31,403 nucleotides of DNA from a virus. Taxonomy: Duplodnaviria > Heunggongvirae > Uroviricota > Caudoviricetes. Numbering within the stretch: the first letter of the stretch is position 1; the number at the start of each line of letters is the position of its first letter. Both the position numbers and the translations under genes were made by a program. Positions 25,045 through 31,403 of the stretch are shown one piece after another. Under the pieces are notes generated by a model. It was not told where the DNA came from and made no database searches. It saw nothing but the letters and a program-made list of their open reading frames with translations. The stretch is taken from IMG/VR virus record IMGVR_UViG_2623620492_000013; one strand, 5' to 3'.

Positions 25045-27021
25045 ATGGCTACGACACCTACCAACCTGTCAGTACCGAGCGAGTCCCCCCGCGATCTGAA
25101 ATTTAACGCAGGGAAAATTGATGAATTTGTGACATCGCTGGCACTTCAGTACATTGATCGCTTTGGCAATGCTCATTACACCATCGAAGGCCTGCGCTGG
25201 ATGGCGCAGCAGGCTATTTCCCAGTATGGGTGGGTTCCGATCGGAACATTCCAGGATGGTGCAACATTAACTCTGCCTAACCAAATCCTGAAAGACACCA
25301 CCGACGGTGAATACTATCGCTGGGACGGTTCATTTTTGCCATCAGGGAAGGTTGTGCCAAATGGTTCTACGCCAGGATCAACAGGTGGGGTTGGTGTAGG
25401 TGCATGGATAAGTGTTGGTGATTCGGCATTGCGCTCAATGCTTGCTTCTGAGCAAGGAGTTTCCATGGTTGGCGGCATTGCCATGGAGCTCGACTCTCAG
25501 GCCGATTTGGCAACAAACACAACTGTTCAGGGACGGCTGGTGGCAGTAAAGAACACTGTCGGTAGTTACAATAAATACTCCATAATTCCAAACTCTGGTG
25601 TGCTTGGCGATGGCGATGTAATCATCGACAGGGTGGATGGATTGCAGGCAGAGCTTCAGATTGAAGGGGTTCTGGATGTACGGGCTTTTGCAAAGTCTGG
25701 TAGGACAGACCAACAAATAATTCAGGCGGCATTAGATTACGCTGGATCTAAATCAGGTCATTGGGTTGTTGGCTTGACGGCCAAAGATAAAACCGGAACA
25801 CCATGGAGATTCAGCACACTTAACGTACCTGACAGCACTGTTTTTCAGGGGCATGGTGGCGCTCTTAAGCTAAATGACAATGTCTGTGTCGATGCTTCAG
25901 TTAGCTATTACTTGCTGCATAACATAAACGGCAATGATGTATGGCTGGACGGGTTATATATCGATGGCAATATGAGCAATAACTCCTTGTTCACCGTTGC
26001 TGATCTTGTAACCCTCATCGGAGAAGGGTCAAAAATCACCAATTGCACCCTTATGAATGCCCCCGACTCTGGTCTAATGTTCTCAGGTGTAAAGAATGGT
26101 CTAGCGTCTGCAAACACCATCGGCAATGGCAGAGATGTTGCTATCTATGCAAATGCAAGCGCAGACGGCAGCGCAAGGAACAATGTGTTATCTGACAATG
26201 TTCTGTACGGATTCCCGGCAGGAGGAATAGGATTTAAACGTTATTTTGCTGATTGTGTAGCCAGCGGGAACGCAATTTATCTCTGTGGAAACGGCGTGAC
26301 ATTTGAGGACTTTACTGTTGAGACCGAAGGTAAATTCCCCAAAAGGATTACGCTGTCTGGTACTTTTATGCGAGACATCGGCTTTCCACACCGCGCCACT
26401 GCTAACGTAGCAGAGCGAGGAATTAGCATTCAGCGTGCCTCTGATATCAGCATCACTGGTCTTCAGACAGTTAACGTTTCTGGCAATATATTATACATTG
26501 GAAATGGCACAGATATCTGCGTTGATAACGCCATGCTTAGAGGTTATGTTGCAAGTCCACAAAGCAACGGAAATAACGGAGTGCTAGTCGTTAATGCCCA
26601 AGGAGGGCACCTGAGTAATGTGAATGTTACCGCAGTGGCAAGCAGGGCAGGATATTTCCAGACCGTTAATGGCATGTCCGTTCGTGGCGGAAGATGGGTC
26701 AGTTCAGGGACTCAGTCTGGCATCAGGGTAGATGCTACCGCTCAATTTTCAATATTTAATCCTGACTATATTTCTGGTGGATCTGGAGCTGACGAAGAGT
26801 GGTTTGAAGGAGCAACAGGGATATCGAACGGATACATCCGGGCTAATGCAACAGGCCCAGGCAGATACGGAATAAGAGAGCTTTCTGCTGGGCAGGGCAC
26901 TAACCCAAATACAAGGCTTATCCCCAGATTTATTGGAGAGAAATGCGTTACCTTGTCAGATAGCGCAATCTGGATGGCAAAAGGTATGTCTAACTCTGAT
27001 TGGGTTAAGTTATCTAACTGA
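25045..27021 (+). CDS. Tail spike protein with right-handed beta-helix domain (putative polysaccharide depolymerase)
   Basis: 658 aa. The N-terminal ~110 aa look like a conserved tail-attachment module. The rest has Gly/Asn/Val-rich repeats (GNGRDVAIYANASADGSARNNVLSDNVLYG) typical of pectate-lyase-like beta-helices, and is more AT-rich than the N-terminus. Confidence 0.75.
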   Translation: MATTPTNLSVPSESPRDLKFNAGKIDEFVTSLALQYIDRFGNAHYTIEGLRWMAQQAISQYGWVPIGTFQDGATLTLPNQILKDTTDGEYYRWDGSFLPSGKVVPNGSTPGSTGGVGVGAWISVGDSALRSMLASEQGVSMVGGIAMELDSQADLATNTTVQGRLVAVKNTVGSYNKYSIIPNSGVLGDGDVIIDRVDGLQAELQIEGVLDVRAFAKSGRTDQQIIQAALDYAGSKSGHWVVGLTAKDKTGTPWRFSTLNVPDSTVFQGHGGALKLNDNVCVDASVSYYLLHNINGNDVWLDGLYIDGNMSNNSLFTVADLVTLIGEGSKITNCTLMNAPDSGLMFSGVKNGLASANTIGNGRDVAIYANASADGSARNNVLSDNVLYGFPAGGIGFKRYFADCVASGNAIYLCGNGVTFEDFTVETEGKFPKRITLSGTFMRDIGFPHRATANVAERGISIQRASDISITGLQTVNVSGNILYIGNGTDICVDNAMLRGYVASPQSNGNNGVLVVNAQGGHLSNVNVTAVASRAGYFQTVNGMSVRGGRWVSSGTQSGIRVDATAQFSIFNPDYISGGSGADEEWFEGATGISNGYIRANATGPGRYGIRELSAGQGTNPNTRLIPRFIGEKCVTLSDSAIWMAKGMSNSDWVKLSN

Positions 27022-28255
27022 AGTCAGGCCGCTGATGCGGCCTTTTCTCTGATAAAAACTGATTTATTAACTGCATAGTGTAAATAAGCATTAATACTTG
27101 AAAAACGAAAAGTACTCTCTTGCCTGAGCCATATGCTGAAGGCGAGAACATAATCATCATCACTGACGCACACGCCAGGAGAATGGTGAAACAACTGTAA
27201 AATGCATCATTTTTACACCTGGCATTAAAAACTGCGAGGCATATCATTGAACTAATTGTCAGTAGAGTCACTGCGTGAGATATGTAAACAGTAGTTCCAG
27301 CCCAATTACTTCCTGATAGATAATTAGAGTTTACCATTCCTTTGAATATATTCGCCCCAAGGAGAAAAGATAAGAACATTATTAATTTTACGGCTACAAT
27401 CGCAGCCGAAATTGATGGCAGGACTTTAAAATCTTTTCTTTTCACATAGAGTAACAACAAAGTAAGCATAGCGATATTGATTAGTACGTTGCCAGAAGAT
27501 GATACGTGACTGCTTAAGACATCCACACCTATTGATAGTTTTTGAAAGATGCCATAGCTAACGTAATCTGGAAGCCAGTTTTTTGACTCACTAAAATATC
27601 TTAACTTATTACCGGGAGCAGAAAAAAGAATAATGGCGCAAGCAATAGTTGTAACGAACATTGCGGCTATGATTGGAGTTATCCTTTTGAGATAGATAGC
27701 TCTGCATGCTAGAAATATCAAGAAGCAGATAGATATCTGTTCGTTGAACCCAAAGTACATAGCAGGTAAAACAGAGAGTGACTTAAGTATAATATTTAAT
27801 GATTTCTCGTTAAGTACTGCATAAACAGACAGTAGGCAAAGAGTTGCTGGCATTAGATAGTTATATGACCCTGCGATCCACCATGATGCATCCGCATTAA
27901 CTTCAGGTTCTATTAAGAAAAACATAAATAAAGAAACTGTGAAAGGAATCATCGCTCCTTGCTTTTCTCGAAGAGTTATCTTACTTATAATAAAAGATAT
28001 CAAAATAACACATGCTGGTATGAAAGTTTTCCAAAAGTATTCATAACGTATTGTATAGACCATGAGAGCATCTATAGTTAATCTCCCACTCCATTTTATA
28101 TATCTGTCATATATAACATCATATACATTAGAGTTTAAAAGCAAGCGTGAGAAATTTAAATCATCTCCTGAGTGACGCAAGGATAAACCAGAAAAAAGAA
28201 ATGCAATAATAGCGATAATAAGCATGGCGGCAGTGACTTTTATGGCCACTATCAT
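27014..28255 (-). CDS. Polytopic inner-membrane protein (putative serotype-specific O-antigen glucosyltransferase, GtrC-like)
   Basis: About 413 aa, many predicted transmembrane helices, very AT-rich, last gene of an operon that begins gtrA-gtrB. Start taken at ATG 28255 (TAAAATG junction); 28282 is the alternative. Confidence 0.6.
   Translation of the reverse strand: MIVAIKVTAAMLIIAIIAFLFSGLSLRHSGDDLNFSRLLLNSNVYDVIYDRYIKWSGRLTIDALMVYTIRYEYFWKTFIPACVILISFIISKITLREKQGAMIPFTVSLFMFFLIEPEVNADASWWIAGSYNYLMPATLCLLSVYAVLNEKSLNIILKSLSVLPAMYFGFNEQISICFLIFLACRAIYLKRITPIIAAMFVTTIACAIILFSAPGNKLRYFSESKNWLPDYVSYGIFQKLSIGVDVLSSHVSSSGNVLINIAMLTLLLLYVKRKDFKVLPSISAAIVAVKLIMFLSFLLGANIFKGMVNSNYLSGSNWAGTTVYISHAVTLLTISSMICLAVFNARCKNDAFYSCFTILLACASVMMIMFSPSAYGSGKRVLFVFQVLMLIYTMQLINQFLSEKRPHQRPDFS
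27026..27047. terminator. Hairpin between the convergent tail spike and gtr genes
   Basis: aggccgc-tgat-gcggcct palindrome. It overlaps the last codons of the reverse-strand membrane protein gene. Confidence 0.45.
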
Positions 28256-28256
28256 T

Positions 28257-28721
28257 TTATTTGCATTGGTAATGGATTTCATAATTATGGAGTCCGTCGT
28301 TAATCAATATAGCAATATTGCCAGTGAATTTTTTAACCTTTTTGTTTCTTACTTGAGAGTTAAACCCAGAGCGATCATAAAGCAATGGTTTTCCAAAAGC
28401 TCGACTTACATCACTTCTTCTGGTCATTGACTTGGGTATGCGCAACCATTTATCTCCGCCTATGCCAGCATAGATATTAACACTATAAAGTGTTTGCAAA
28501 TTGTAGTTTTTTACTGCTGCCCAACCATTAACTACAAGTCTGCCGTCCTCAACCCGGCATCTATCTATATGATATATAATTCCTGAACTTGTTTTAGCAT
28601 TGTCAAATTTAAATGTCGAAACGTCTGCTTTGTTAATATAAAAATAAAAGCCAGCAGGCAACATAATAGATGTTACAAACAATCCGACAAGTAATGTTTT
28701 TACAGGTAGTGAGACCTTCAT
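28257..28721 (-). CDS. Membrane-anchored hypothetical protein in the gtr operon
   Basis: 154 aa with one N-terminal transmembrane segment and a soluble domain. Coupled to gtrB upstream (ATGA) and the membrane protein downstream. Confidence 0.55.
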
Positions 28722-29635
28722 CCTTTCCTCTTCAAAATATATCTAGGACGGCTCTTTACTTCGGTGTAAATTCTTCCGATGTACTCACCAAGCACCCCGA
28801 TACCAATCAATTGGACTCCACCAAGGAAAAGGATAGAAACAAGAAGTGACGGGTAGCCCCGCACTGCGTTACCAAAAGCAAGGGTATCAACTATCATCCA
28901 TGAGCCATAGAGGAACGCCACGCCTGCAACCAGAAGGCCGATGTAAGTCCACATGCGAAGCGGGAAAGTAGAGAAACTCGTGATACCCTCAAGTGCCAGG
29001 TTCCACAACTTCCAGCCGTTAAATTTCGTACTTCCTGCGACGCGTTCTGCGCGGGCATATTCAACGACATCTGTACGGCCGCCAACCCAGCTCAATACGC
29101 CCTTCATGAACAGGTTGCGCTCTGGCATGAGCTTAATGTTTTCCACCACCTCGCGGGACATAAGGCGGAAGTCACCAACGTTTTCTTCAATCTTCGGGTT
29201 GCTGATTTTGTTGTGCAGCTTATAGAACCATTCAGCGGTCTTGCGCTTCAGTCTGCCATCTGTAGAGCGATCAGAGCGTTTAGCGAGAACCATATCAGCA
29301 CCGGCCTGCCATTTCTCGATAAGGTGAGGAATGACTTCGATAGGGTCCTGCAAGTCTACGTCAATCGGGATAATTGCTTCACCGGTCGCGTGGTCAAGGC
29401 CGGCGAACAGGGCTGGTTCTTTCCCAAAGTTACGAGTAAATGACAATGGAACAACAAGCGTATCGGCAACAGCAAGCGCGTTAATAATTGATTCTGTCGC
29501 GTCTTTGCTGCCGTCATTGATGAATACTATCTCGACTTCATGCTGCTGAAGGCCTTCAAATTCCCGAACCGTTTTATAAAAAATCGGTATCGCGTCTTCT
29601 TCGTTGAAGACGGGAACGACCAGAGAAATTTTCAT
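28718..29635 (-). CDS. gtrB: Bactoprenol glucosyltransferase GtrB (GT2 family)
   Basis: 305 aa with the N-terminal glycosyltransferase-2 fold motif VVPVFNEE...INDGSKD and two C-terminal transmembrane helices; close match to GtrB as recalled from Shigella and Salmonella serotype-converting phages. Confidence 0.9.
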
Positions 29636-29994
29636 TTCGCATCCCTAAAGACAATAAACTTAGAATAGAAAAAGCCACATACAAGACTAATGGCGGAGAA
29701 CGCCACCAGTGTGACGATTGGCGGTAAGCCACACCTGTCAGCAGCCCAACCTACAGCAGCACTCAGCGTTCCCATAAACCCAACGTAAAGCATGTAACGC
29801 AGCGTGGAAGTGGATGCTTTAAAAGTGAAGCGTGCGTTAGCGTAGAAACTAAAGCTGACGGCTACCACGAAACCTGCAAAGTTAGCCAATGCCTGACTTG
29901 TGGATAGGCCATACACGCAAACACCAAACACGACCCAGTGAATGAGTGTGTTCAGTACGCCAATCGATGTGTACTTAGCAAAAAGTTTTAACAT
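29632..29994 (-). CDS. gtrA: Bactoprenol-linked glucose translocase GtrA
   Basis: 120-aa four-helix membrane protein; [20 protein letters not shown]...FIVFRDAK matches GtrA closely. Confidence 0.9.
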
Positions 29995-30070
29995 TAGAAA
30001 AATCAGTCAATTCTGAGAAGGCAGAAGTTTAGCACCAACAAACAACTTGATCGACTATCAGAATAAGATG

Positions 30071-30090
30071 TACTGTATATGTGTACAGTA
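30071..30090 (+). promoter_or_regulatory. LexA (SOS) box
   Basis: TACTGTATATGTGTACAGTA is a near-perfect match to the enterobacterial LexA consensus CTGT-N8-ACAG with AT-rich spacer, 19 nt upstream of the ATG at 30110. Confidence 0.8.
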
Positions 30091-30109
30091 TTTATTTTTG
30101 GGTGACTAT

Positions 30110-30349
30110 ATGCCGCGTCGTTCAGATATCGTGATCGCCTTCAGAGCCTCTATTGTGCATGAAAGGTCAGGCCGCAGGATTGTGAAAACTGCTGATTTTG
30201 TTCAGGAACTACTAAAGGTCAACTGGGACCTAAGTATGGAAGAGGCGAATCAGTGGATAGATAGGTACACAACCTGCTTCAAAGACATCACTCCTGACCA
30301 CGGAGAGAACAAGACGTGGTTCATGTACAACCCGAATGGAGGGCTTTGA
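30110..30349 (+). CDS. Hypothetical 79-aa protein, first gene of the LexA-box operon
   Basis: ATG at 30110 directly downstream of the LexA box; the longer reading frame from 30047 would include the box. No similarity recognised to DinI or other known small SOS proteins. Confidence 0.5.
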   Translation: MPRRSDIVIAFRASIVHERSGRRIVKTADFVQELLKVNWDLSMEEANQWIDRYTTCFKDITPDHGENKTWFMYNPNGGL

Positions 30350-30350
30350 T

Positions 30351-30734
30351 ATGGCATTTGCATCCCCGGCTAAGGACTATGTGGAGCGCGGCATCTCTTT
30401 AGATGCTGAGTTGATTAGCCATCCATCGGCGACTTACTATGTCAGGTCTGATGTGGCTATTTTGCGTGCCGGCATTAAGCAAGGCGCGCTGCTTGTCGTG
30501 GACTCAGCAGTAAATCCATGTGATGGCTCGATCGTTCTCTGTTCCATCGATGGCCAGTTTGTCCTGAGGTATTACCGTATGTTCCCATGCTTGCATCTGG
30601 AGAACATGGAGACAGGTCGGAAGGAAAGGGCGCGCGGACTCGACGACGGAAGTGCAATCGATGTTTTCGGCGTGGTGACATACATCATTAACAATGCGCG
30701 CACCGGTGAATTCGACGACAACCCGGTTATTTAA
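30351..30734 (+). CDS. UmuD'-like protein (pre-truncated UmuD homologue, HumD-like)
   Basis: Aligns by eye with E. coli UmuD from Gly25 onward (ASPAKDYVE..., HPSATY, LLVVDSA, DVFGVV). GGAGG RBS 8 nt before ATG 30351; the alternative start is 30336. The Ser and Lys positions of the catalytic dyad appear substituted in my manual alignment. Confidence 0.7.
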   Translation: MAFASPAKDYVERGISLDAELISHPSATYYVRSDVAILRAGIKQGALLVVDSAVNPCDGSIVLCSIDGQFVLRYYRMFPCLHLENMETGRKERARGLDDGSAIDVFGVVTYIINNARTGEFDDNPVI

Positions 30735-31403
30735 TCAGACGGGCTCGATTAACTCCGGGCCCTGATTCTTCACATTACCAACAGCGCGCGACACTGCGTG
30801 CCAGATAAATGCATCTGCTGGCACCGAACCGTCGGAAACAATCTCCTCTGCTTCTTTCCCGCCCACATCCTGCCGCATCCATTCGCGTGCTGCTTCCGGT
30901 GACAGAACGAGTTGCCTGCGGTCGTGAATATCGACCAGTCCTTTATCGGCAGCCGCCGTGACTATCATAAAGCCTTCCGCTTCATCATCACGCTCAAACG
31001 GCGTACTGCCTATCGCCGCCATGAATATCGGCTTACCGTCCGCCCGATGAATGAAGTACGGCTGCTTCTTTTCGCCTTGCTTCTTCCATTCGAACCAGCC
31101 ATCAGCAAAGACTATCGCCCGGCCATGTTGCCAGAGCGGTTTGAACATCCGACTGGTGGCCGCAGTTTCCACACGTGCGTTTATCAGAGGCGGCTTATCC
31201 CACCATCCTGGAGCATAGCCCCAGTAAACCGGATCGAGGTGTAGTTGTTCATCTCGTTCGCTCAGCAGCAAAACTTTAGTGCCTGGCGCCACGTTGTACC
31301 GGCCAATGGGTTCCGGGTCGAACGGAATGTCACACTCGGCCTCTTCAGCGATTAACGCCAGATAATCTTCACGGGTCATTGATTGAGAGAAACGTCCGCA
31401 CAT
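30735..31403 (-). CDS. yedK: SOS-response-associated peptidase (SRAP), YedK-like host gene
   Basis: 222 aa starting MCGRF (the Cys2 nucleophile is the SRAP hallmark); the start codon is the last three bases of the window. Confidence 0.8.
   Translation of the reverse strand: MCGRFSQSMTREDYLALIAEEAECDIPFDPEPIGRYNVAPGTKVLLLSERDEQLHLDPVYWGYAPGWWDKPPLINARVETAATSRMFKPLWQHGRAIVFADGWFEWKKQGEKKQPYFIHRADGKPIFMAAIGSTPFERDDEAEGFMIVTAAADKGLVDIHDRRQLVLSPEAAREWMRQDVGGKEAEEIVSDGSVPADAFIWHAVSRAVGNVKNQGPELIEPV

Follow-up and report, generated by a model that had tools for sequence, protein, structure and literature searches.

A gene that encodes what looks like an already processed UmuD', placed behind a small open reading frame (ORF) and a LexA box at the end of a prophage, raises the question of what such a pair does for the lysogen, and whether its two products act together. 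This arrangement is found in IMG/VR record IMGVR_UViG_2623620492_000013, a Caudoviricetes sequence of 31,403 nucleotides (nt), the whole of which is called the window here. The first gene, ORF-A, encodes 79 amino acids (aa) and the second 127 aa (Table 1). The original prediction described them as a LexA-controlled operon for a small protein of no recognised family and a pre-cleaved mimic of UmuD'. Judged by its sequence, the second gene is a member of the known HumD family: it has each testable defining feature of that family and lacks those of an autoproteolytic S24 peptidase. The reading favoured here, with moderate confidence, is that of a 'moron', an accessory operon, induced by DNA damage, that closes a temperate Escherichia coli siphovirus prophage, and whose HumD would work with the UmuC of the host and whose ORF-A would serve as an accessory. 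For comparison, 155 loci with an ORF-A homologue were gathered from phage records, IMG/VR contigs and GTDB genomes, the window itself included. Only a few query proteins served to collect them, and the counts given below describe those lineages rather than an unbiased census; a profile scan of the genome collection with a shallow ORF-A alignment gave 4 loci.

The family assignment of the second protein relies on the curated equivalog model NCBIfam NF051876 ('HumD family translesion DNA polymerase'), which it matches at 164.5 bits (cut-off 120) over its full length, residues 1-127 falling on profile positions 1-129. This goes beyond the mere resemblance to phage P1 HumD that had been proposed, P1 HumD itself scoring higher on the same model, at 221.5 bits, and N15 gp26 at 204.1. 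The window protein remains below the cut-offs of the models for UmuD (PRK10276, 80.9 vs. 110 bits) and LexA (TIGR00498, 18.6 vs. 110.95 bits). It matches UmuD' in the PDB (1i4v) with an E-value of 3.8e-21 and about 40% identity over UmuD residues 25-136; its identity reaches 54% with P1 HumD and 51% with N15 gp26.

Formal alignment also bears out the idea that the protein is born pre-cleaved. Its residue 2 corresponds to Gly25 of full-length UmuD (PDB 8gmt_B), directly past the Cys24-Gly25 cleavage bond, and a MAFFT alignment with UmuD, P1 HumD and N15 gp26 agrees on a start at the cleavage point, placing the N-terminal Met-Ala-Phe on UmuD Gly25-Phe26. Aligned to UmuD, the protein has neither the N-terminal arm nor a Cys-Gly cleavage site. 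The sole upstream in-frame ATG (30336) would add 5 residues inside ORF-A, and the start is not conserved there. As had been suspected from a manual alignment, the catalytic positions are replaced, with Ala at UmuD Ser60 and Arg at Lys97, and the Ser-Lys dyad of autoproteolytic S24 peptidases (UmuD, LexA, lambda CI) is absent. Among the distinct long-form proteins (defined below) encoded beside ORF-A homologues, 37 have Ser/Lys at these positions, 4 have Thr/Lys and 3, forming the clade of the window protein, have Ala/Arg. By these alignments, the dyad loss is real and confined to this clade, in which drift is to be expected because no arm remains to be cleaved. A C-terminal tail, GEFDDxPVI (window 30696-30731, HumD residues 116-127), is common to the window protein, P1 HumD and N15 gp26, while short UmuD'-like forms also end in PVI. 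E. coli UmuD and UmuD' (S24; PDB 1umu, 1i4v, 8gmt) belong to the same fold family as the window HumD, which differs in having no arm, cleavage site or dyad, in possessing the extra tail that E. coli UmuD lacks, and in not lying beside umuC. Indeed, umuC is absent from the window, in which the ORFs of 300 aa or more are all phage morphogenesis or gtr genes, and it is likewise missing within 6 kb of the same genes and their downstream neighbour in E. coli M171-1, in agreement with what had been noted from the sequence.

The near-consensus LexA box that had been reported upstream of the 79-aa ORF is present and unique in the window. It departs from the 20-mer consensus palindrome at 2 positions (0 matches in 100 shuffles) and lies exactly 19 nt from the ORF-A start codon. 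The ORF itself stands as described, but the start assigned to the operon, at 30047, was the TTG of a mechanical 100-aa ORF, and is really part of a conserved -35-like TTGATC. This hexamer, which also contains a Dam site (GATC), is kept 17-18 nt from the left half of the box, including in distant relatives (phiES15 and an IMG/VR contig, L019) whose upstream sequence is otherwise different. TTGATC-N18-TACTGT is, from this conservation, the likely promoter, with TACTGT, the left half of the box, as its -10 element, so that the LexA box would cover the -10. In 148 of the 155 loci, the 200 nt before the ORF-A homologue contain a LexA box, and the P1 humD and phiKO2 records have LexA sites annotated at the equivalent place before humD. 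Repression of the operon by LexA would be expected from this layout.

The two genes are tightly joined. The ORF-A stop codon TGA (30347-30349) is separated by 1 nt from the humD ATG, the Shine-Dalgarno sequence of humD lies inside ORF-A, and among 119 distinct related pairs, 114 have a spacer of -1, +1 or +2 nt between ORF-A and its partner, which upholds the translational coupling proposed earlier. The linkage is also nearly constant in one direction: among the 121 loci where the sequence extends far enough downstream, ORF-A is immediately followed by a HumD- or UmuD'-like gene in 116. In the other direction it is loose, ORF-A being present at 0 of 80 P1-type and 1 of 33 N15-type humD loci; P1, N15, phiKO2 and HK639 all carry humD without it. 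Since ORF-A is seldom found without a UmuD'-like gene, HumD is often found without ORF-A, and the genes are translationally coupled, ORF-A is probably an accessory factor of HumD, and presumably one that contacts it.

The partners of ORF-A come in two forms, a long form of about 129 aa, which is the HumD family, and a short form of about 105 aa, in which the Ser60 loop and a second segment are deleted. The short form keeps the MGFPSPAxDY N-terminus and, with 28-31 bits, falls short of the cut-off of the HumD model (120); examples are phiES15 gp52 (L001 2743-3069), Midgardsormr38 gp34 (L002 2743-3066) and most of loci L079-L158. The subtypes of ORF-A track the form of the partner, with some reassortment. 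In several Stx2-converting phages (e.g., NC_049944.1 54773-54931 and FM180578.1 56985-57143), all that is present of HumD is a C-terminal piece (residues 75-126) encoded at the genome end; it would appear that these pieces derive from the same module, severed at the attachment site.

ORF-A itself is a real gene under purifying selection, given a ratio of nonsynonymous to synonymous substitution (dN/dS) of about 0.1 (0.06-0.12 against close relatives, median 0.105 over 1,517 family pairs). Its homologues all begin at an MPR... methionine, and a G-rich stretch is kept in relatives at the position of its Shine-Dalgarno-like sequence. The claim that it belongs to no recognised family holds for Pfam, NCBIfam and PADLOC, and no PDB match was found by sequence (single sequence or profile), but it is a member of PHROG 3893 (annotated 'function unknown'; E-value 8.9e-33). 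A profile search of 1.84 billion cluster representatives returned 127 clusters only, nearly all of about 79 aa. An AlphaFold2 (AF2) model built from a 39-sequence alignment, which replaced an earlier one from 4 sequences with a predicted local distance difference test (pLDDT) score of 69, gives a confident winged helix, H1-(beta)-H2-H3-beta hairpin, and its structural matches are winged-helix domains. These include PCI, ESCRT-II and cullin domains, i.e., winged helices used as protein-protein modules. In BFVD, the sole significant structural match is the homologue from phage HK225 (K7P7N3).

In NCBI/RefSeq (window 30110-30349; L006 6039-6278) and in one phage record, ORF-A bears the name 'DNA polymerase V'. 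No NCBIfam or Pfam model stands behind this name, the predicted fold is a winged helix, and the name looks carried over from the neighbouring gene. Homology to the LexA N-terminal domain (hhalign probability 0.08%) and kinship with P1 Lxr, the LexA-regulated neighbour of P1 humD (hhalign probability 0.2%), were rejected, and the Gifsy-1 genes STM14_3218-3220, considered as an earlier description of the ORF-A/humD module, proved unrelated. Five apparent natural fusions of ORF-A to an S24 protein (P0064, P0102, P0137, P0179 and P0188) retain the HumD's own Met behind an out-of-frame linker and were set aside as frameshift products. In two of them (P0179 and P0188, from Pseudocitrobacter faecalis, 207 aa), a frameshift after ORF-A Gly65 joins HumD via an alternative frame (...DHGRTRPGSCTTRTEGFD-MAFASPA...); because one version is present on 11 contigs, this is a lineage variant and not a single sequencing error.

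Among described phages, two arrangements can be compared with that of the window. P1 HumD (also in P7, D6 and SJ46; NF051876) is of similar length (129 vs. 127 aa) and has the same start at the UmuD cleavage point, M-G/A-F-P/A-S-P-A. In both P1 and the window, the unit's first gene starts 19 nt after a LexA box, and no umuC is adjacent. P1 humD differs in being monocistronic, with a divergent neighbour, lxr, that is unrelated to ORF-A, and in keeping Ser and Lys at the dyad positions where the window HumD has Ala and Arg. N15 gp26, phiKO2 gp23 and HK639 gp28, from linear-plasmid and lambdoid prophages, are, as here, accessory genes of the HumD family after tail-fibre genes, but in phiKO2 humD stands beside a divergent dinI, with no ORF-A, whereas the window has gtrA upstream. 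The second arrangement, LexA box, ORF-A homologue and UmuD'-like gene near the prophage end, is that of HK140 (gp27-gp28), phiES15 (gp51-gp52), Midgardsormr38 (gp33-gp34) and the prophage of E. coli M171-1. It differs from the window in HK140 by the addition of a divergent dinI, and in phiES15 and Midgardsormr38 by a partner of the short form (about 107 aa) that fails the HumD model.

The two-gene architecture is, therefore, neither rare nor new: it is already in these sequenced phages and in RefSeq E. coli prophages, uncommented there. ORF-A and HumD proteins identical to those of the window have been deposited as E. coli proteins. When the operon was compared with the phage collection as nucleotide sequence, nothing matched, its relatives being visible at the protein level only. 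What is new here is that humD is often preceded by a conserved, unstudied small protein, the predicted winged helix ORF-A. The locus is of lower interest than the original prediction proposed, since HumD has been known since 1999, the year of the primary experimental paper on the P1 protein (McLenigan et al.), a curated model exists, and the module was already in sequenced phages and prophages.

From these elements, the following sequence of events may be proposed. In the lysogen, host LexA would sit on the box overlapping the -10 element and keep the operon off. Upon DNA damage, RecA* would trigger the self-cleavage of LexA, and one mRNA would yield two tightly coupled proteins. HumD, which lacks the 24 residues of the N-terminal arm, would already have the UmuD' form when synthesised and would need no RecA*-dependent processing. 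By analogy with P1 HumD, it would then dimerise and join host UmuC, and the outcome would be an active translesion polymerase of the DNA polymerase V (Pol V) type, earlier than the host's own UmuD would permit. ORF-A, for its part, would be a binding partner modulating the activity, stability or targeting of HumD. The partnership with UmuC is drawn from the P1 protein, for which the GenBank record states functional complementation of UmuD'; P1 HumD is the sole member known to stand in for UmuD' in UmuC-dependent SOS mutagenesis. Two functions had been suggested originally, namely that the operon could modulate host translesion synthesis or could act in an antirepressor-like manner.

Several observations weigh against this scheme. 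In 5 loci, one of them in phage HK225, ORF-A stands by itself, and a role independent of HumD is, therefore, possible. The short form, which is the commonest partner of ORF-A, fails the HumD model and may have a role other than translesion synthesis. The Ala/Arg clade represents a minority of long-form HumDs (3 of about 49 distinct proteins), and a generic promoter scanner gave no call for TTGATC-N18-TACTGT.

The loci with ORF-A alone leave room for an explanation in which ORF-A is an independent SOS-induced winged-helix regulator, either a DNA-binding transcription factor or an antirepressor-like switch, that merely shares the LexA-controlled promoter with humD. This is unlikely, as ORF-A nearly always comes with a UmuD'-like gene to which it is coupled in translation. 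No antirepressor or helix-turn-helix family was matched in Pfam, PHROGs or NCBIfam; for the Tum, Ant and Gifsy types of antirepressor, Pfam and PHROGs gave nothing, and the BFVD matches named 'antirepressor' had E-values above 0.2. The ORF-A family is only mildly basic (median net charge +2), and its helix 3 carries a conserved A-N-x-W-I (A46-N47-x-W49-I50) instead of a basic face, with few conserved basic or polar residues, so that DNA binding is possible, yet not indicated. Moreover, a winged helix may also be a protein-protein module, as the structural matches given above illustrate.

A different function for the whole module is conceivable, in which it modulates RecA* and the SOS response. 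An uncleavable HumD would occupy the groove of the RecA filament and slow the cleavage of LexA, UmuD or the phage repressor, with ORF-A assisting and a phage DinI alongside in many relatives. Two features favour it: in 64 of the 155 loci, the LexA box also serves a divergent dinI, the product of which binds RecA filaments (dinI is so placed in HK140, HK225 and phiKO2 as well), and the dyad is dispensable in the clade of the window HumD, the Ser loop being deleted in short-form partners. Nevertheless, complementation of UmuD' in mutagenesis is on record for P1 HumD, and the window has no dinI, its upstream gene being gtrA. Such a decoy is, overall, quite improbable for this locus.

The LexA N-terminal domain consists of three helices followed by a beta hairpin, and phage GIL01 gp7 binds host LexA. 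In Acinetobacter, the UmuD homologue UmuDAb is a repressor acting with a small co-repressor, DdrR (PMC11332147). It is very doubtful that ORF-A and HumD form a split LexA- or UmuDAb-like repressor, with DNA-binding and S24-type dimerisation modules on two polypeptides that assemble on DNA, even if the predicted order of elements in ORF-A follows the general LexA layout and Acinetobacter offers a UmuD homologue that represses with a small partner. DdrR and gp7 are proteins of about 50-80 aa that act by binding an S24-domain protein, and offer, by analogy alone, a precedent for ORF-A as a partner of HumD.

The favoured reading of ORF-A as an accessory of HumD has a bolder extension, which we consider rather unlikely: ORF-A would be the founding member of a winged-helix family that binds UmuD'-like dimers, and the two together would make up a single SOS-induced machine, which HumD does not build by itself. 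If this were true, ORF-A could tether HumD or Pol V to particular DNA, or could shield HumD from heterodimerisation with host UmuD and from ClpXP. It could also make a DNA-bound regulator out of the degenerate short UmuD'-like form, i.e., a split factor of the LexA/UmuDAb type.

The surroundings of the operon are those of a prophage end. The operon lies at the right end of a late region, preceded by genes for the large terminase subunit (7994), portal (9513), tape measure (18874) and tailspike (25045). The E. coli prophage is of the siphovirus type, and the SOS module closes it, behind gtrABC-like genes. The latter form a minus-strand O-antigen modification cluster (27014-29994) between the tailspike side and the operon. 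Besides the membrane protein and GtrA listed in Table 1, it comprises a GtrB-like glycosyltransferase, the name of which is taken from the annotation of related E. coli genomes, and a 154-aa ORF that matches nothing in Pfam and shares 26 nt with the following gene. In the related prophage of E. coli M171-1, an acyltransferase takes the position of the DUF6056 protein in the cluster. The gap after gtrA is 115 nt and contains the LexA box; gtrA is divergent from the SOS promoter and lies 77 nt from the box. Positions 27110-31403 of the window are identical to an IMG/VR contig, and E. coli M171-1 has ORF-A, humD and the convergent SRAP gene at 91% nucleotide identity, as the last prophage genes before host yciB.

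This SRAP gene is what had been called yedK on the opposite strand. It is convergent and YedK-like as stated, but it is a prophage-borne copy, distinct from the chromosomal yedK locus. It begins at the final base of the window and abuts the humD stop codon with zero spacer, and its matches to PF02586 (175 bits, profile positions 1-211 of 214) and PRK09951 (458 bits, cut-off 349) indicate a complete SRAP domain. It is present in 19 of the 155 loci. SOS control of the gene was considered and rejected, as no LexA box lies upstream of it in the seven related loci examined. Its leader is kept in related loci (L006 7332-7497, L010 5294-5550 and L027 4301-4560) as minus-strand CTATACTTTCAGTC...CTGGAGG, with a TATACT -10-like element and a Shine-Dalgarno sequence. 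With this leader and no LexA box, the SRAP gene looks constitutive rather than SOS-controlled, despite the name of its family, and is probably, on this pattern, a neighbour outside the SOS operon. A hairpin within its 3' end, with a 7-bp stem, 6 G-C pairs and a weak T tract, is a weak candidate for the operon terminator, about 0.8 such sites being expected by chance in a consensus scan. As for membership of a defence system, ORF-A, HumD and the SRAP protein all gave no match in PADLOC.

Table 1. Coordinates of the SOS operon and of neighbouring features in the window
Feature	Position	Strand	Basis or remark
DUF6056 protein, 422-aa membrane protein	27014-28282	-	gtr cluster
GtrA	29632-29994	-	PF04138
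-35-like hexamer TTGATC of the putative SOS promoter	30047-30052	+	Conservation
LexA (SOS) box TACTGTATATGTGTACAGTA	30071-30090	.	Sole CTGT-N8-ACAG in the 31.4-kb window
Shine-Dalgarno-like GGGTGA for ORF-A	30100-30105	+	Read from sequence, 4 nt before the ATG
ORF-A, 79-aa predicted winged-helix protein	30110-30349	+	PHROG 3893; NCBI name 'DNA polymerase V'
GGAGG Shine-Dalgarno for humD	30338-30342	+	Inside ORF-A codons Gly77-Gly78, 8 nt before ATG 30351
humD-family gene, 127 aa	30351-30734	+	NF051876; starts at the UmuD cleavage point; dyad Ala/Arg
Convergent SRAP/YedK-like gene, 222 aa, N-terminus MCGRF (Cys2)	30735-31403	-	PF02586, PRK09951
G+C-rich hairpin, candidate operon terminator	30741-30762	+	Within the 3' end of the convergent SRAP gene

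The practical gain is modest: the locus can now be classified, the name 'DNA polymerase V' is seen to have no profile support, and a lead is provided in the form of a conserved winged-helix protein encoded alongside HumD-like proteins in many enterobacterial prophages. For HumD-type genes more generally, a ready-made UmuD' supplied by a prophage can remove the delay that RecA*-dependent processing imposes on error-prone Pol V, and lysogens carrying such genes may, as a result, mutate faster under DNA-damaging antibiotics.

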